64,000 nucleotides of DNA, taken from contig JACOYH010000003.1 in assembly GCA_016181965.1 (NCBI GenBank), forward strand, positions 65,013-129,012. The letters run 5' to 3'. Each line of letters starts with the position of its first letter. Positions within the stretch are counted from its first letter, which is position 1. Positions 15,519 to 62,983 of the stretch are shown here, in pieces. Origin of the DNA: Candidatus Nealsonbacteria bacterium (GTDB taxonomy: Bacteria; Patescibacteriota; Minisyncoccia; Minisyncoccales; MHMH01). Below the pieces are notes generated by a model. It was not told the origin of the DNA. It made no database searches and saw nothing but the letters and a program-made list of their open reading frames with translations. The translations under genes and the position numbers were made by a program.

Positions 15519-16560
15519 AAAGAGGGTTGTTGTTGCTATGTCTGGCGGAGTGGATAGTTCGGTTGCCGCGGCCCTGCTTAAAAAGCAGGGTTTTGATGTC
15601 ATAGGAGTTTTTATGCGTTTTTGGCTTGCCCGCCGAAGCCTTGGCGAAGGCGGGGATGGATACAACCGATGCTGTTCGCCGGAAGCAGAAGAGCGGGCGA
15701 GGCAGGTTGCCCGAATTTTGGGTATTCCATTTTATGTTTTTGACTTCAGAAAGGAATTTAAGAAAGAAGTCGTCGATTATTTTATAAGGGAATATAGAGC
15801 AGGCCGCACGCCAAATCCCTGCGTTGTTTGCAACAAAGAAATAAAGTTCGGACTTTTGCTGAGAAGGGCTCTTGCTATGGAAGCCGACTTTATTGCAACC
15901 GGTCATTACATCCGACTGAACAGAGGAAGAATTTTCGAAGCAAAAGATAGACAGAAAGATCAGTCGTATTTTTTGTGGCAGCTTTCTAAAAAAGAGTTGC
16001 GCCGATGCCTGTTTCCATTGGGCGGCTATACTAAGACAGAAGTTAGGCAATTAGCCAAAAGATTTAAGCTGCCGGTGGCTTCAACTCCCGATTCGCAAGA
16101 AGTTTGTTTTGTTCAAACAGATATCACTGATTTTTTCAAAAGATATATTAAGCAAAAATCCGGCAAAATCGTGGATGTTACGGGTAGGGTCTTGGGCCAG
16201 CATAGGGGATTGGCTGTTTATACTATTGGCCAGAGGAAGGGTATGGAATTGCCGCAAGGCCCATATTGGGTCGTTGGAAAGGATACCAAGAAAAATGTTT
16301 TGGTTGTCACCAATAACGAAGATGATTTACTGCAAAAAGAGCTTACCTTCGAAAATGCTAATTGGATTGCAGGACAGCCGCCGAAATTTCCGGCCAAGGT
16401 AAGGGCAAAAATCAGGTATCGTTCGCAGCCGGCTCCAGCCACGATTTATGAAAATCAGAGAATGGTTTTCCAAAAGCCGCAAAGAGCCGTAACCCCGGGT
16501 CAGTCCGCGGTCTGTTATAAAGGCCCCGAGCTTTTGGGAGGAGGTGTTATTTGCTCTTGA
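15511..16560 (+). CDS. mnmA: tRNA-specific 2-thiouridylase
   Basis: VVVAMSGGVDSSVAA PP-loop, TPNPCVVCNKEIKF and DQSYFL motifs. Confidence 0.9.
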   Translation: MRKKRVVVAMSGGVDSSVAAALLKKQGFDVIGVFMRFWLARRSLGEGGDGYNRCCSPEAEERARQVARILGIPFYVFDFRKEFKKEVVDYFIREYRAGRTPNPCVVCNKEIKFGLLLRRALAMEADFIATGHYIRLNRGRIFEAKDRQKDQSYFLWQLSKKELRRCLFPLGGYTKTEVRQLAKRFKLPVASTPDSQEVCFVQTDITDFFKRYIKQKSGKIVDVTGRVLGQHRGLAVYTIGQRKGMELPQGPYWVVGKDTKKNVLVVTNNEDDLLQKELTFENANWIAGQPPKFPAKVRAKIRYRSQPAPATIYENQRMVFQKPQRAVTPGQSAVCYKGPELLGGGVICS

Positions 16561-16584
16561 CAAATCCTATAAATATAGTATAAT
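16557..16584 (+). promoter_or_regulatory. Consensus sigma70-like promoter
   Basis: TTGACA (16557-16562, overlapping the mnmA stop), 16-nt spacer, TATAAT (16579-16584). Confidence 0.55.
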
Positions 16585-16590
16585 GTAGGT

Positions 16591-16859
16591 ATCAAGATTT
16601 GTTGGGAGGATCATTTCCAATGAACGCCGCGACATGCGCTCGTCTATCCACCGTAGTGCGGACGACGGAACGCCAGAGTCGAGCAATCGGCAATGGCGAC
16701 ATCAAGCAGGCCCTTGATCCCCGAGCAATCGGGGAAAGAGGGCAATACGACGGCCTGCCCCGGCCATCGTATGTAAAGGAAGGGGCGAGGGTCTGGCGTT
16801 TCTAACGCCAGCCCACCAACTAGAGCCCGTGCTTTTCAAAAGTGCGGGCTTTTCTTTTT
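16591..16859 (+). ncRNA. Unclassified G+C-rich structured transcript (candidate sRNA, or mRNA of a 61-aa ORF at 16620-16805)
   Basis: It lies between a consensus promoter and an intrinsic terminator. There are at least 5 hairpins, including two CGA-GCAA-UCG GNRA hairpins (16680-16690, 16722-16732). I counted 63% G+C over 16621-16680. Confidence 0.4.
16825..16859 (+). terminator. Intrinsic terminator of the 16.6-kb unit
   Basis: 8-bp stem GCCCGTGC/GTGCGGGC with a 9-nt loop, then CTTTTCTTTTT. Confidence 0.6.
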
Positions 16860-16880
16860 GGTAAAAATAAGCACAAGAGT

Positions 16881-24787: not shown

Positions 24788-24835
24788 GAATACACCGGTG
24801 CCACCGGTGTATCTACACCGGTGGCACCGGTGTAT
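24788..24835. repeat. Nested palindromic doublet (two inverted copies of hairpin ACACCGGTG-S-CACCGGTGT)
   Basis: AATACACCGGTGCCACCGGTGTA-TC-TACACCGGTGGCACCGGTGTATT, with 23-nt perfect arms, followed by ATTCTTTTGTTTT. It probably also terminates rpsI. Confidence 0.85.
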
Positions 24836-24852
24836 TATTCTTTTGTTTTATT

Positions 24853-24892
24853 AAGCGACTTCGGGAGTCGCGTACGCGACTCCCGAAGTCGC
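24853..24892. repeat. Nested palindromic doublet (19-nt arms)
   Basis: AGCGACTTCGGGAGTCGCG-TA-CGCGACTCCCGAAGTCGCT. Each arm is itself a hairpin. It ends 12 nt before the ATG at 24905. Confidence 0.85.
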
Positions 24893-24904
24893 TAAATTAT
24901 ATTT

Positions 24905-31255: not shown

Positions 31256-32509
31256 ATGAGGCAATCAGAACTTTTTGCCAAAATAAAAAAGGAAGCGCCA
31301 AAGGACGCAGAAAGCATTTCCCACAAGTATTTGGCGAGAGGTGATTTTATTGACCAGGCGGCCTCGGGCATTTACAGCTTTTTACCGTTGGGCTGGAGAG
31401 TGCACAAGAAAATCGAGAATATTATTCGTCAAGAGATGTTGTCTGTTGGCGGTCAAGAGATTTTTCTGCCTGTTTTAACCCCAAAAAAGTTTTGGCTGGA
31501 AACGGGCAGGTGGCAAACAATCGACCCGCCGCTTTTTAAATTCAAAGACCGCCATGGCTCCGAGCTTGCCCTGGGTCCAACGCACGAGGAAATTATTACC
31601 GACCTTGTCAGGCGAAGAGTAAAATCCTATCGCGACTTGCCGCTCTATCTTTTCCAAATTCAGGATAAGTTTAGAAATGAAATGCGGGCTACCGGTGGCT
31701 TGCTGCGCGTCAGGGAATTTATTATGAAGGATCTATATAGTTTCCATCAAAGCCCGAAAGATGCGAAAGAATTTTACGAAAAAGTTAAAAAGGCCTATCT
31801 GCGGATTTTCAAGCGTTGCGGCTTAAATCCGGTCGCCGTGGAAGCAGACCCGGGCACTATCGGCGGAGAAATGTCGCACGAATTCATGGTGCTTTCTGAA
31901 ACAGGCGAAGACAAGGTTCTGGTTTGCAAAAAGTGCGGATTTGCGGGGAACATTGAAAAATTCCAAGATATTAAAATCTGCCCCAAGTGCCAATCAAACC
32001 TTGAAAAGTTTTCTGCCATTGAGTCAGCCCACGCTTTTTATCTGGGAACAAAATACAGCAGCCCAATGGTTGCCAATTTTATTGACAAGAAAGGCGGGCA
32101 AAATCCCGTTATTATGGGCTGTTACGGCATTGGGCTGGGGCGGCTCATGGCAACGATTATTGAAGCCAACCACGATCAGCGTGGTATTGTGTGGCCGATT
32201 GAAGTGGCGCCGTTTGCCTTGCATCTGATTCCAGTTGGCGGATCGGCCAAAGTAACGGCCGCGACTGACAAAATTTACGATAGCTTGAAAAAAGCGGCGA
32301 TGGATGTATTATATGACGACAGAGTAGAGAAAACGCCCGGAGAAAAGTTTGCCGAGGCGGATCTGATTGGCATACCTACGCGGTTGGTGGTTAGCGAAAA
32401 AACCCTAGAAAAGAATTCAGTCGAAATCAAGAAACGCAACGAACAAAAAACAAGATTGGTTAGATTAGCTAAGCTAAGCAACCAGTTGCTTAGCTTAGCT
32501 AAGCAATAG
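31256..32509 (+). CDS. proS: Prolyl-tRNA synthetase
   Basis: The ATG at 31256 gives MRQSELFAKIKKEAPKDAE... It has class II motifs (FRNEMRATGGLLRVREF, GCYGIGLGRL). Confidence 0.9.
   Translation: MRQSELFAKIKKEAPKDAESISHKYLARGDFIDQAASGIYSFLPLGWRVHKKIENIIRQEMLSVGGQEIFLPVLTPKKFWLETGRWQTIDPPLFKFKDRHGSELALGPTHEEIITDLVRRRVKSYRDLPLYLFQIQDKFRNEMRATGGLLRVREFIMKDLYSFHQSPKDAKEFYEKVKKAYLRIFKRCGLNPVAVEADPGTIGGEMSHEFMVLSETGEDKVLVCKKCGFAGNIEKFQDIKICPKCQSNLEKFSAIESAHAFYLGTKYSSPMVANFIDKKGGQNPVIMGCYGIGLGRLMATIIEANHDQRGIVWPIEVAPFALHLIPVGGSAKVTAATDKIYDSLKKAAMDVLYDDRVEKTPGEKFAEADLIGIPTRLVVSEKTLEKNSVEIKKRNEQKTRLVRLAKLSNQLLSLAKQ
32465..32502. repeat. Palindromic repeat family C, inside the proS 3' end
   Basis: TTAGCTAAGCTAAGCAAC-CA-GTTGCTTAGCTTAGCTAA. 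It encodes the last residues ..LAKLSNQLLSLAKQ*. Confidence 0.8.
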
Positions 32510-36890: not shown

Positions 36891-36981
36891 GAGATATATC
36901 TATTATTCTTATAATCAAGCCAAGATTTCTGATATTTAGCCATTTTATTGGTTCAAAGTTCCGGAAATCGCCTCCGCCAGT

Positions 36982-37016
36982 TAAGAGTGTTAGACATCGG
37001 ATGTCTAACACTCTTA
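36982..37016. repeat. REP family A copy
   Basis: TAAGAGTGTTAGACATCGGATGTCTAACACTCTTA, a 16-bp hairpin with a CGG loop. Confidence 0.85.
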
Positions 37017-37019
37017 CGC

Positions 37020-37047
37020 TTGACAAGATTTTTGGGTATGCTAAGAT
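37020..37047 (+). promoter_or_regulatory. Sigma70-like promoter with extended -10, upstream of pheS leader
   Basis: TTGACA (37020-37025), 16-nt spacer, TGC-TAAGAT (37039-37047). Confidence 0.45.
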
Positions 37048-37332
37048 GCGTACATAGTTAATACCACGCTGTTTTGAAGGAAAGAAAGGAGGTGATGATT
37101 TTGATTGCATCCAGTGGGCAGTTCTTGATTAATATGTGATCGCCGCGGCGCCGACAACCGCAAGAGGAGGCGCCAGTAGCGCCTCCTCCCCAAAAAAGCT
37201 ATGCGAGCATTGCTCGCTAGACGATATAGGGGCCTGACTTAGTCGGGCCCCTTTGTATTCCCTCCGGCAAATACGGGGGTTATCCCCAGTTGAGGCTTGA
37301 TTTTTGGCTAAAAATAGGATAAAATAGACGTA

Positions 37333-38346
37333 GTGACAGACCTCAAAAAAATCAAAAAAGAAGCCGAAAAGGAGATAGGGTCGGCAAAAGACCTTAAGGA
37401 ACTGCAAGATGTTTTCAATCAATATCTGGGGAAGCGAGGCGAGCTTACCCAGATTTTGCGTTCGCTCAAGGATATGCCAAAACGCGAGAGGATTATGTTT
37501 GGTAAGGACGCCAATGATGTTAAAAATGCCCTTACCATCGCCTTTGACGAGAAAAGCGCCGGACTCAAGGCAGGGGAAGCGAGAGCCGCCGAAGAAAAGG
37601 AATGGATTGATGTTACTGCGCCCGGAAAAAAGATTGCTGTCGGCCATTTGCACCCTTTGACTTTAGCTAAAAGAAAAACCATGGAGATTTTCCAGTCCAT
37701 GGGATTTGCCGTGGCCGAAGGCCCGGACATCGAAACAGAGTGGTACAATTTTGACGCTCTAAATATTCCCAAGGACCATCCAGCCAGAGACGTCTGGGAC
37801 ACTTTCTATCTGAAAGACGGCCCCCTTTTACGCACTCATACGAGTCCGGTACAGATTAGGTATATGGAAAAGAATAATCCGCCCCTAAGGATTATTGCTC
37901 CGGGCACGGTTTACAGGCATGAGTCCACTGACTCCTCCCATGAATTTCAGCTTTATCAGGTTGAAGGTCTAATGGTGGATAAAGACATTTCTGTCGCCAA
38001 CCTAAAAGCCGTGGTTGGTGAATTTTTCAGGAGATTTTTTGAAAAAGAAGTTGATTTTCGACTGAGGCCCGACTTTTTTCCTTTTGTTGAGCCGGGCTTT
38101 GACATTAGTATTACTTGCCTCGTTTGCGGCGGCAAGGGTTGCTCTGTTTGCAAGGAGACCGGCTGGCTGGAAGTGGCCGGCGCCGGTATGGTTCATCCGA
38201 ATGTCTTTAAGGCAGCCGGATTGTCGCCGGAATGGCAGGGCTGGGCATTTGGTTTTGGATTAGAAAGGTTGGCTATGCTCAAATACAGAATCAATGACAT
38301 TCGCCTTTTTCGCTCAAGCGATTTGCGATTTTTAAATCAATTTTAA
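37333..38346 (+). CDS. pheS: Phenylalanyl-tRNA synthetase alpha subunit
   Basis: GTG start per the ORF track. HPLTLAKRK...HPARDVWDTFY...LLRTHTSPVQIR...GFGLERLAML. Confidence 0.95.
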   Translation: MTDLKKIKKEAEKEIGSAKDLKELQDVFNQYLGKRGELTQILRSLKDMPKRERIMFGKDANDVKNALTIAFDEKSAGLKAGEARAAEEKEWIDVTAPGKKIAVGHLHPLTLAKRKTMEIFQSMGFAVAEGPDIETEWYNFDALNIPKDHPARDVWDTFYLKDGPLLRTHTSPVQIRYMEKNNPPLRIIAPGTVYRHESTDSSHEFQLYQVEGLMVDKDISVANLKAVVGEFFRRFFEKEVDFRLRPDFFPFVEPGFDISITCLVCGGKGCSVCKETGWLEVAGAGMVHPNVFKAAGLSPEWQGWAFGFGLERLAMLKYRINDIRLFRSSDLRFLNQF

Positions 38347-42277: not shown

Positions 42278-42628
42278 ATGACCATTCGCGATCTAGATAA
42301 AAATGGCGTCTGGAGGGCAATGACCATAGCGCTTTTAGCAGCTACCGTTGGCTTGCTCCTTTTGGGCTGGCAATACCGCCAACTTGAAGAAAAACGATTA
42401 CCCGCCTTGGAAAAAGAAATGCAAAGGCAAAGCGAGGAAATTGAGAGAAGGTCGGCGCAAAATGCGCTGGAGCGTTTTATGTCGGCTCGACTCAATAAGC
42501 GGGAAGCGCAAGCCGCCCTTTACCTTACCGAAAACGCGGCCGAACAAGAACGACTGAAAGAGTTTACGCTTTTAGACGATTACGATAGTTTTAAAATATT
42601 AAGCAGTGAAAAGTTGGCTGAAGGCTGA
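42278..42628 (+). CDS. Hypothetical membrane-anchored protein, possibly frameshifted (continues in +1 frame to 42749)
   Basis: 116-aa ORF with a TM helix. A protein-like frame (EEEYRFVLEIRTKSVGTFVEIITVMKILGNYYINSIQLAG*) runs from 42627 to 42749. Confidence 0.5.
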   Translation: MTIRDLDKNGVWRAMTIALLAATVGLLLLGWQYRQLEEKRLPALEKEMQRQSEEIERRSAQNALERFMSARLNKREAQAALYLTENAAEQERLKEFTLLDDYDSFKILSSEKLAEG

Positions 42629-42760
42629 AGAGGAGTACCGTTTTGTTCTTGAAATTCGCACAAAATCAGTCGGGACTTTCGTAGAAATCATCACTGTAAT
42701 GAAAATTTTAGGCAACTACTATATAAACTCCATCCAACTCGCCGGCTAAAATGGGAGCGA

Positions 42761-42859
42761 CGAAAAGGGGTCAGGTCCCTTTTTTTGAATCGAGTCAAAA
42801 AAAAGGGACCTGACCCCTTTTCGGACCCGGACCTTTTCGGACCTGACCCCTTTTCGGAC
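42761..42859. repeat. 26-bp inverted repeat plus short direct repeats (family D)
   Basis: The arms are CGAAAAGGGGTCAGGTCCCTTTTTTT and AAAAAAAGGGACCTGACCCCTTTTCG, separated by an 11-nt spacer. ACCTGACCCCTTTTCGGAC then recurs at 42808-42826 and 42841-42859, and CCTTTTCGGAC occurs 3 times. Confidence 0.8.
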
Positions 42860-42868
42860 GCAGTACAT

Positions 42869-42896
42869 TTGACAAAGTCAGTAAATGTGCTATAAT
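42869..42896 (+). promoter_or_regulatory. Consensus promoter with extended -10
   Basis: TTGACA (42869-42874), 16-nt spacer, TGC-TATAAT (42888-42896). Confidence 0.55.
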
Positions 42897-42921
42897 AGGG
42901 GCATGGAAGAAGGAGGATTCG

Positions 42922-43260
42922 ATGGAAATTCTTGCTCCTTTGATGGCGATCGGCATCATGATCTATGGGCTAATGCTCATGGGTCGTGGGCCGACATTTG
43001 CCAACCGGATGGTGGGCAGGGCCATCCGTTGGATCAATCGTCAGATTTGGCGGCTGGTTCGACGGCTGTTGCGCCTTTCGTGGCGCTGGCAGTGGGCCCT
43101 CAACAGAGCCGTCGCTCGCGGTCTCTGGTGGCTTGTTCGGAGAACCGGACGAATTATCAGGGCTGCGTGGCGGCGTTATCCTCATGCCAGTGGTCTCTTC
43201 TGGGGAGCATTGGCCGGGACAATCGGGACGATTCTAGCGGTACGCGCCGGGATCGTCTAA
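42922..43260 (+). CDS. Arg/Trp-rich 112-aa protein with hydrophobic termini, unknown function
   Basis: AAGGAGG lies 5 nt upstream of the ATG. By my count it has 19 R, 9 W, 0 K, 0 D and 1 E. It sits between a consensus promoter and terminators, and 43021-43080 is 58% G+C. Confidence 0.5.
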   Translation: MEILAPLMAIGIMIYGLMLMGRGPTFANRMVGRAIRWINRQIWRLVRRLLRLSWRWQWALNRAVARGLWWLVRRTGRIIRAAWRRYPHASGLFWGALAGTIGTILAVRAGIV

Positions 43261-43266
43261 TGGCAG

Positions 43267-43300
43267 GGGCGACCATAAAATGGCCGCCCTCTTTCTTTTT
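43267..43300 (+). terminator. Intrinsic terminator after the R/W-rich ORF
   Basis: Stem GGGCG-A-CCA/TGG-C-CGCCC, then TCTTTCTTTTT. Confidence 0.5.
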
Positions 43301-43305
43301 GCCGT

Positions 43306-43350
43306 GCCGAGGACTGTCCTTGCCAGAATCTGGCAAGGACAGTCCTCGGC
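43306..43350. repeat. 45-nt perfect palindrome
   Basis: GCCGAGGACTGTCCTTGCCAGA-A-TCTGGCAAGGACAGTCCTCGGC. Confidence 0.85.
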
Positions 43351-43378
43351 AAACTCGGCAGAATATACCGATTTTGGT

Positions 43379-44195: not shown

Positions 44196-44243
44196 ATTGC
44201 TTAGCTTAGCTAAGCAACTAGTTGCTTAGCTAAGCTAAGCAAT
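44196..44243. repeat. Palindromic repeat family C, abutting the rplK start codon
   Basis: ATTGCTTAGCTTAGCTAAGCAAC-TA-GTTGCTTAGCTAAGCTAAGCAAT, with 23-nt arms. The rplK ATG is at 44244. Confidence 0.85.
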
Positions 44244-62929: not shown

Positions 62930-62983
62930 ATTAGCGGGATCGTTTCTCGCTAGTAATTACTAGCGAGAAACGATCCCGCTAAT
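62930..62983. repeat. 54-nt perfect palindrome, repeat family B full doublet
   Basis: ATTAGCGGGATCGTTTCTCGCTAGTAA|TTACTAGCGAGAAACGATCCCGCTAAT. All 27 pairs were checked by hand. Confidence 0.9.

Follow-up and report, generated by a model that had tools for sequence, protein, structure and literature searches.

A highly structured mRNA encoding a small Arg/Trp-rich protein with hendecad repeats and two predicted membrane anchors in Candidatus Nealsonbacteria

The stretch of DNA analyzed in this study, called the window below, comprises 64,000 nt of contig JACOYH010000003.1 of Candidatus Nealsonbacteria bacterium (assembly GCA_016181965.1, positions 65,013-129,012, forward strand). Between gyrB and secE it contains an open reading frame (ORF) for a 112-residue protein rich in arginine and tryptophan, here called the R/W protein. 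As judged from comparison with homologous loci, the R/W ORF is an independently transcribed protein-coding gene under purifying selection. The explanation that best joins our observations, and which we hold tentatively, at slightly less than an even chance, is that of a coding gene whose product is a doubly membrane-anchored helix of the 3-11 type (11 residues in three turns), lying in the plane of the membrane with a stripe of arginines, and whose mRNA carries a structural layer of its own.

The R/W gene and its family

The closest homologues of the R/W protein are P0001 (78% identity) and P0002 (75%), encoded at the loci L001, on an NCBI contig of a metagenome-assembled genome (MAG), and L002, on a short contig. 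The gene order of L001 (gyrB, a 154-residue ORF, the R/W ORF, secE, nusG, rplK) is that of the window. The expression unit consists of the following elements, given by their positions in the window:

42869-42896, plus strand: sigma-70-type promoter, TTGACA (42869-42874) and TATAAT (42891-42896) separated by a 16-nt spacer with a TG-extended -10; 12/12 match to consensus
42910-42916, plus strand: Shine-Dalgarno sequence AAGGAGG, 5 nt before the ATG, read from the sequence
42922-43260, plus strand: coding sequence for the 112-residue R/W protein, stop codon included, supported by codon-position bias, the six-frame test and protein homologues
43266-43300, plus strand: intrinsic terminator, a GC-rich hairpin (43266-43290) followed by CTTTCTTTTT, the T-tract reaching 43300; -20.2 kcal/mol, z-score -2.8; kept in L001 and L002

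Both promoter hexamers are unchanged in L001 and L002 despite differing DNA upstream, the Shine-Dalgarno site of these loci is AAGGAGG or AAGGGGG, and the stem of the L002 terminator is perfect and includes a compensatory change from C-G to T-A. Perfect 12/12 promoters occur twice in the 64 kb, where 0.01 would be expected, and one of the two is that of the R/W gene. Further, distant family members have their own consensus promoter wherever upstream DNA is available. Together with an open initiation region (see below), the consensus promoter suggests high constitutive expression. A preliminary description of this DNA had presented the locus as a self-contained unit of promoter, ribosome-binding site, ORF and terminator; every one of these signals was found, including the Shine-Dalgarno sequence at its claimed distance and the hairpin with T-tract after the ORF, and promoter, Shine-Dalgarno sequence, ORF and terminator are all kept in both homologous loci. 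In the promoter, the hexamers and the TGC were correctly read, but not the spacing N16-TGC: the 16-nt spacer includes the TGC and should be written N13-TGC.

Translation of the ORF yields 19 Arg, 9 Trp, no Lys, no Asp and 1 Glu, exactly as counted before. The G+C-richness claimed for the unit is also real (0.59 in the R/W ORF, 0.45 in the window). Because the other long ORFs of the window are rich in Lys, as the preliminary description held, and poor in Arg and Trp (8.65%, 5.5% and 0.9% on average, respectively), the composition of the R/W protein is a strong outlier. The absence of Lys is specific to the window clade and is not a trait of the family; relatives have 3-8 Lys.

The coding test covered 100 gap-free codons of three loci, the window, L001 and L002. 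Between the window and L002, codon positions 1, 2 and 3 have 27, 9 and 44 substitutions, respectively. In the six-frame comparison, frame +1 has 35 silent and 22 replacement codon differences and no stop in any homologue; the remaining five frames have 22 silent to 34 replacement differences or worse, with stops. Thus +1 is the sole frame of the six in which silent changes exceed replacements and stops are absent. Since GyrB and NusG of the window and L001 are 93% and 96% identical, the R/W protein, at 78%, evolves faster than its neighbours.

The family was sought by an exhaustive HMMER search over 1.84 billion cluster representatives and by two profile searches over 5.8 billion clusters. These recovered only about ten clusters, with proteins of 94-135 residues, none named and none with a Pfam domain. 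A third profile search gave no further members, and pattern scans with the family profile over GTDB genomes and JGI metagenomes gave no additional loci. P0003-P0011 are 33-50% identical to the window protein, and the E values of the homologues range from 1e-20 to 1e-43; P0003 and P0005 are encoded at loci L090 and L091, respectively. The family alignment comprises 11 sequences. The G+C content of the gene exceeds that of its contig by about 10 points in a clade of 97-residue members, by 14 in the window and by 1-5 in L088, L089 and L090. As far as these searches reach, the family is very small, unnamed and derived from Patescibacteria-like metagenome contigs (candidate phyla radiation, CPR).

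For the window protein nothing significant was found in Pfam, NCBIfam, PHROGs (no match below E 0.1), PADLOC (no match at E<=1) or a PDB profile search, and Foldseek gave no significant match in PDB or BFVD. These results agree with the preliminary description, which recognised no family; the metagenomic profile search that it proposed yielded the rare homologous clusters described above, none of them a known family. Mobile or phage origin was rejected, there being no match to the R/W protein by tblastn against phage genomes and plasmids or in a scan of IMG/VR.

Hendecad architecture of the protein

All family members have a transmembrane (TM) helix at either end; their basic amphipathic middle is joined to the N-terminal one by an invariant Y-G...M..G-P-x-x-A-N hinge and to the C-terminal one by a P-x-(A/S/T)-(S/T)-G hinge. 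The net charge varies from +12 to +21 across members, and the middle of the window protein carries +18. The features of the window protein are as follows:

42928-42987, plus strand: TM helix 1 (TM1), residues 3-22; Kyte-Doolittle 17-residue mean 2.28, AlphaFold2 helix 4-22
42988-43005, plus strand: hinge G-P-x-x-A-N, residues 23-28, leading from TM1 to the repeat helix; G23, P24, A27 and N28 invariant in 11 sequences
43006-43179, plus strand: five tandem 11-residue repeats plus RRY, residues 29-86, supported by periodicity, hydrophobic moment, 11-residue indels and AlphaFold2
43021-43065, plus strand: hypervariable segment, residues 34-48, in the last part of repeat 1 and in repeat 2; replacements in 10-12 of 15 codons per pairwise comparison
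43180-43194, plus strand: hinge P-x-(A/S/T)-(S/T)-G, residues 87-91, before TM helix 2; P87 invariant, G91 nearly so, helix break of the model at 86-89
43189-43257, plus strand: TM helix 2 (TM2), residues 90-112; Kyte-Doolittle mean 1.74, up to 3.29 in relatives, AlphaFold2 helix 90-109

The repeats read RMVGRAIRWIN, RQIWRLVRRLL, RLSWRWQWALN, RAVARGLWWLV and RRTGRIIRAAW, followed by RRY, and the hendecad consensus is R-x-(L/I)-(G/W)-R-h-(L/I)-(R/K/W)-(W/R/A)-h-h. The autocorrelation of basic residues peaks at lag 11; its value is +0.73 in the window protein and lies between +0.57 and +0.77 across the window and P0003/P0008 clades. In the four members tested, the power spectrum has its maximum at 3.67 residues (p<0.0005 against shuffles). 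Over the 58 residues of the region the hydrophobic moment is maximal, 0.76, at 98.18° and falls to 0.58 at 100°. The central region is longer by exactly one repeat in P0003/P0008 (69 residues) than in the window clade (58 residues); members have 4-6 repeats. In 43 repeats from ten proteins, positions 1, 5 and 8 are basic in 79%, 79% and 60% of cases, respectively, position 8 being Trp in another 21%; position 4 is Gly or Trp, position 9 is Trp, Arg or Ala, and positions 3, 7 and 10 are aliphatic or Phe in about 75%. On a helix with 11 residues per three turns, basic positions 1, 5 and 8 fall on one straight, narrow cationic stripe of about ±33°. This stripe is flanked by Trp and Gly, and Leu, Ile, Val and Phe make up the remaining helix surface. 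The organising principle, 3-11 hendecad amphipathic repeats, is already known; the doubly TM-anchored, all-arginine form is not.

AlphaFold2 predicts helices at residues 4-22, 24-85 and 90-109 of the window protein, with a break at residue 23 (mean predicted local distance difference test score, pLDDT, 80.7; pLDDT 75-90 in helix 24-85), and the same three-helix plan for the 97-residue member P0006. The hydrophobic ends noted in the preliminary description are corroborated, and its central R/W amphipathic stretch is refined to five hendecads. TM1 lacks a basic N-region, and its residues L7, Y15, G16 and M20 are invariant in the family.

The preliminary description had regarded frame-breaking indels in homologous loci as an argument against coding. 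Frame +1 is free of stops in the homologues, and a 2-nt insertion in L001 (3436-3476) shortens TM2, giving a protein of 106 residues; the ancestral 3' coding DNA and the original stop are recognisable downstream, and the frameshift is either recent or a sequencing error. In L091 (556-948), member P0005 is broken by an in-frame TAG just ahead of the TM2-like segment, and the gene call spans this stop.

The substitutions in the hypervariable segment, residues 34-48, show no third-position bias. A diversity-generating retroelement was rejected as their source, as the window holds no second DNA or protein copy of the ORF, and so was a compensated frameshift, the three aligned DNA sequences differing, by eye, too much for simple indels.

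Structure of the mRNA

The coding sequence of the window folds with a minimum free energy (MFE) of -176.9 kcal/mol, corresponding to a z-score of -7.2 relative to dinucleotide shuffles. When synonymous codons are permuted, a control that preserves the protein and its codon usage, the z-score is -6.6; on this ground the amino-acid sequence was rejected as the only source of the fold. Similar hyper-structure was found in L001, L002 and L090, the locus of the P0003 gene, and the z-score is near 0 for the neighbours gyrB, nusG, thyX and the upstream ORF. When the window was tiled in 300-nt segments (mean z -0.75, standard deviation 1.78), tile 42901-43200, with z -5.3, was the most structured among purely coding tiles. 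The sense strand folds to -177 kcal/mol (z -9.3), with 30 of its 124 pairs (24%) being G·U, and the antisense strand to only -105 kcal/mol (z -2.0). DNA-level palindromes were therefore rejected as the cause in the window clade.

The three close homologues share a consensus structure of 120 pairs, in which 91% of cells are paired. Two of its hairpins are:

42950-42994, plus strand: mRNA hairpin A, 20 pairs, within the coding sequence; found in the MFE fold of all three loci (window, L001, L002)
43114-43171, plus strand: mRNA hairpin D, 25 consensus pairs, within the coding sequence; kept in the window clade and in the P0003/P0008 clade

Hairpin A corresponds to consensus helix 3 (98% of cells paired, two compensatory pairs), and hairpin D to consensus helix 7 (92% paired). 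Both sides have changed in 16 consensus pairs. Sliding the partners by 1-3 columns leaves 2-4 such pairs, and column shuffles give 8.2±1.9, none of 500 reaching 16. This compensatory-pair evidence comes from three sequences, with the structure derived from the same three, and we consider it supportive, not conclusive. Around the codons for residues 34-48 each lineage folds a different local hairpin, in coincidence with the hypervariable protein segment. The mRNA is a series of long hairpins, a fold peculiar to the sense strand and apparently maintained by compensatory substitutions.

The preliminary description had named a structured RNA as an alternative to coding, because all frames are open at the locus, which is true within the window. 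If the transcript were primarily a non-coding RNA with an incidental ORF, the folding z-score of about -7, the compensatory pairs and the sense-strand specificity would be expected, and the openness of every frame in the window also speaks for this reading. However, purifying selection and freedom from stops in homologues are confined to frame +1, a strong Shine-Dalgarno sequence stands at the correct spacing, distant members keep the protein architecture at 33-50% identity, and the 97-residue clade and L088 lack excess RNA structure. Nor does the element match any Rfam family: at permissive E-values the locus gave only spurious miRNA-type matches, on the flanking palindromes, a scan of the whole window at gathering score gave nothing in the ORF, and L001 and L002 are likewise without an Rfam match. 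ARAGORN detected no tRNA or tmRNA in the R/W ORF. We regard an RNA-only gene as essentially excluded, and by far the least probable of the readings considered here; RNA structure does not replace coding but overlays it, in the form of the hyper-structured mRNA and its compensatory substitutions.

The initiation region shows no significant folding (z about 0). Sequestration of the Shine-Dalgarno sequence was considered and rejected: one MFE structure does pair AAGGAG with CUCCUU of codons 5-7, but the ensemble frequency in this region is low. An unstructured initiation region and a structured coding sequence would fit a message that is efficiently initiated and long-lived or slowly translated. 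The hairpin chain may prolong the life of the mRNA or pace translation during membrane insertion.

Predicted membrane role, rivals and genomic setting

Because TM1 lacks a basic N-region and is followed by the +18 segment, the positive-inside rule predicts that the middle of the protein is cytoplasmic and both short termini are outside; this is the outcome of the topology prediction that the preliminary description had proposed. The central helix, about 90 Å long, uninterrupted and anchored in the bilayer at both ends, would run roughly parallel to the membrane, an orientation that rests on the continuous 62-residue helix between two TM helices in the model. We suggest that the R/W protein is a doubly anchored, in-plane, cationic amphipathic 3-11 helix embedded in the cytoplasmic leaflet. 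The Arg stripe and the Trp collar would engage the head groups of anionic lipids, with the wide hydrophobic face acting as a wedge in the leaflet. The outcome may be to stabilise, shape or organise the lipids of the cell's own membrane, and to perturb or damage it at high dose.

This geometry has precedents. Helices of the 3-11 type built from 11-residue repeats are known to lie along lipid surfaces in apolipoproteins, synucleins and perilipins (PMC6164224). The R/W protein resembles apolipoproteins, alpha-synuclein and perilipins in its 11-residue periodicity, its 3.67 residues per turn and its single long uninterrupted amphipathic helix; repeat number likewise varies among relatives, and the expected orientation is parallel to the lipid surface. 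Group 3 LEA and bacterial YtxH-type proteins are further 11-mer-repeat amphipathic helices. No family member matches the Apolipoprotein, Synuclein, Perilipin, LEA_4 or YtxH Pfam models at E<=5. Further, proteins of this class are soluble and exchangeable, whereas the R/W protein is fixed by a TM helix at each end; they have a wide zwitterionic polar face with Lys at the interface and an acidic centre, whereas the R/W protein has Arg at positions 1, 5 and 8, no Asp and a single Glu. Unlike them, it is abundant in Trp and comes from a CPR-type bacterium.

Arg/Trp-rich antimicrobial and cell-penetrating peptides, for instance of the indolicidin, tritrpticin and lactoferricin types, are short and secreted or processed. 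They share with the R/W protein the R/W composition and cationic amphipathicity, which imply strong affinity for anionic bilayers, but the latter is an integral membrane protein of 112 residues without a signal-peptide n-region, and its cationic hendecads are predicted to be cytoplasmic. SecG is of similar size, with two TM helices, outside termini and a cytoplasmic loop, the topology predicted here, and in the window lineage the R/W gene is adjacent to secE. However, the loop of SecG is Gly-rich whereas that of the R/W protein is a 58-residue Arg helix, the secE neighbourhood is not kept in other family members, and no SecG model matched the window protein in Pfam or NCBIfam, or any of the 11 members in Pfam. 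Get1/WRB (the "tryptophan-rich basic protein") and YidC/Oxa1-type proteins also combine a TM helix, a basic cytosolic helical region and a TM helix, but have a three-TM core and an antiparallel coiled-coil hairpin, whereas the model of the R/W protein has one continuous helix, with no Pfam or Foldseek match.

Several observations weigh against the proposed membrane role or its supports. The polar face is unusually narrow (about ±33°) and free of acidic residues, unlike that of the exchangeable lipid-binding 11-mer proteins and closer to lytic-type helices. Hydrophobic positions 3, 6, 7 and 10 would also suit the core of a hendecad coiled coil, so that an oligomeric rod is possible. The predicted template modeling score (pTM) is only 0.38, with an alignment of only 11 sequences, and the topology, the in-plane orientation and the binding of lipids are predictions. 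In L001 TM2 is cut short, and in P0005 a stop codon interrupts it. The mRNA hyper-structure, absent from the 97-residue clade and L088, is not essential to the family. Finally, the gene neighbourhood is not conserved across clades, which makes context uninformative on function.

The rivals to a lipid-binding helix rank, by weight, as an RNA or ribosome binder, a toxin- or holin-like effector and, last, the RNA-only gene discussed above. According to the first, which we consider unlikely, the protein is a membrane-tethered binder of polyanions (RNA, ribosome or DNA), whose cytosol-facing Arg stripe serves as an arginine-rich motif that keeps structured RNA, possibly the gene's own transcript, or ribosomes at the membrane. 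The net charge of +18 and the 19 Arg, with no Lys in a Lys-rich proteome, would fit such a function; so would the straight stripe, which would be accessible to solvent if the hydrophobic face is buried, the exceptional hairpin chain in its own mRNA, and the neighbours secE-nusG-rplK in the window, prfB in L088 and tsaD in L091 (the last two read by eye). However, relatives replace much of the Arg by Lys and do without the mRNA structure, and no RNA-binding family was matched. Genes for translation make up a large share of small genomes, and an adjacency that is not conserved weighs little. Trp on either side of the stripe, together with so large a hydrophobic face, is more characteristic of insertion at a membrane interface. 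An extension of the binder hypothesis, in our view improbable, is a dual-layer element in which the hairpin chain is functional and the Arg-stripe helix is a membrane-anchored arginine-rich RNA-binding motif that captures its own or other structured RNAs.

Somewhat less probable than the polyanion binder is a membrane-damaging effector, similar to type I toxins or holins, in which a cationic helix with a narrow polar face would permeabilise the membrane once translation is released. The geometry, a narrow cationic and a wide hydrophobic face, is of the lytic type, and R/W composition is typical of membrane-active peptides. Type I toxin loci such as hok and tisB likewise encode a small cationic and hydrophobic membrane protein under its own strong promoter on a very compact, stable mRNA, and the upstream partner gene has a weak Rz/LysB-like match (E 0.019). 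That match, however, scores 15 bits against a cutoff of 92.75, and in the window a frameshift disrupts the upstream gene but not the R/W gene. The hallmarks of control in hok/tisB-type loci were not found here: the initiation region is open, with no support for Shine-Dalgarno sequestration, and the only promoter-like site on the antisense strand (9/12) is not conserved in L001 or L002. With 112 residues and two TM helices, the protein is larger than type I toxins, which have fewer than about 60 residues and a single TM helix. The context is also unlike that of an effector; there is no endolysin, phage or plasmid association (PHROGs, PADLOC, phage genomes, plasmids and IMG/VR all being empty), and the gene is single-copy, syntenic on the chromosome between gyrB and secE, and under purifying selection.

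In the closest other genomes recovered, a Candidatus Nealsonbacteria MAG (GyrB 69% identical) and a CPR MAG (67%), secE directly follows gyrB, and the roughly 1.2 kb with the 154-residue gene and the R/W gene is accordingly a lineage-specific insertion. The preliminary description had placed the unit at a site where rpmG or tRNA genes often precede secE; this view was not upheld, as gyrB abuts secE in these genomes and no rpmG or tRNA gene was replaced. Its proposed check for the unit between gyrB and secE gave presence in L001 and absence from the two nearest other genomes. In addition, it had framed the cassette by two repeat elements. They do exist in the window, and the downstream one, at 43306-43350, is indeed a perfect 45-nt palindrome (22-nt arms, 1-nt centre, z -11). 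However, both L001 and L002 lack this palindrome, the upstream hairpin with 26-bp arms and the 17-nt direct repeats, which places all three outside the cassette.

Upstream, at 42761-42859, the perfect hairpin with 26-nt arms follows the upstream gene and is itself followed by 3.2 copies of the 17-nt unit GGACCTGACCCCTTTTC, a copy of the hairpin's own 3' arm; L001 and L002 carry a short terminator hairpin or nothing at this position. Intergenic perfect palindromes with 18-27-nt arms and 0-2-nt centres lie at 62930-62983, 44196-44243, 24789-24836, 24850-24897 and 32465-32502, in addition to the one at 43305-43351 after the R/W gene, and dominate the most negative folding z-scores of the window. 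The palindrome at 44196-44243 ends at the rplK start codon and shares a motif with 32465-32502. These palindromes look like recent insertions because L001 lacks two comparable ones: its nusG-rplK spacer has 30 nt, against 94 nt in the window, and none follows its R/W gene.

The upstream gene (42278-42749 in the window) is intact in L001, where its product of 154 residues, without a Pfam match, consists of an N-terminal TM helix, a coiled-coil part and a small domain at the C-terminus. This gene also precedes the R/W ORF in L002. The window copy is broken up by a tandem duplication of 7 nt, GGCTGAA-GGCTGAA, at about 42615-42628, which is either a real frameshift or an assembly error.

In L001 (3575-3870) and L002 (545-635), a second consensus promoter lies between the R/W gene and secE. 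It is followed by GC-rich DNA without a convincing ORF, about 270 nt in L001, and L002 ends after about 90 nt; the stretch is absent from the window, where the palindrome stands instead. It has no Rfam match and a folding z-score of -2.95, and is possibly an unannotated small RNA. Within 16557-16865, the only other perfect TTGACA-N-TATAAT promoter of the window drives about 270 nt of GC-rich DNA closed by a hairpin and T-tract, with a 300-nt tile of z -5.6, a possible 52-codon ORF and no Rfam match. This is a second self-contained cassette. Between a tRNA cluster and an ORF at 37474, the region 36900-37500 contains tiles with z -5.7 and -3.6 and no significant Rfam match.

On the short contigs of other clades the neighbours vary, among them a pilin-like gene, prfB and tsaD as read by eye, and several unknowns; no conserved operon partner is evident on the contigs available. 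In the 97-residue clade, a 132-residue type IV pilin- or pseudopilin-like gene with its own promoter follows the family gene (L083 499-897, L085 2017-2415, L087 1633-2031). It has an N-terminal G|ASMIEML-type motif and a T2SSG match of E 0.002, below the cutoff; the three loci are closely related and count as one observation.

With about ten clusters among 5.8 billion the family is tiny, short contigs reveal no conserved partner, and the function is wholly inferred. Still, a small and easily synthesised protein with a simple repeat code makes the model of a doubly anchored in-plane helix directly testable. The hyper-structured mRNA within a coding sequence under purifying selection provides a clean natural case of overlapping RNA and protein constraints. 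Were the dual-layer hypothesis true, the locus would be a prokaryotic overlap of strong selection on RNA structure and on protein sequence over a whole coding sequence, and its protein and RNA would make up a self-contained pair with which a minimal bacterium localises RNA or autoregulates the gene. The membrane biology of CPR bacteria, presumed scavengers of lipids, is little explored. If the membrane role proposed here is correct, the 3-11 principle, known mainly from eukaryotic lipid-surface proteins, would extend to a doubly anchored, all-arginine form in these ultra-small bacteria.

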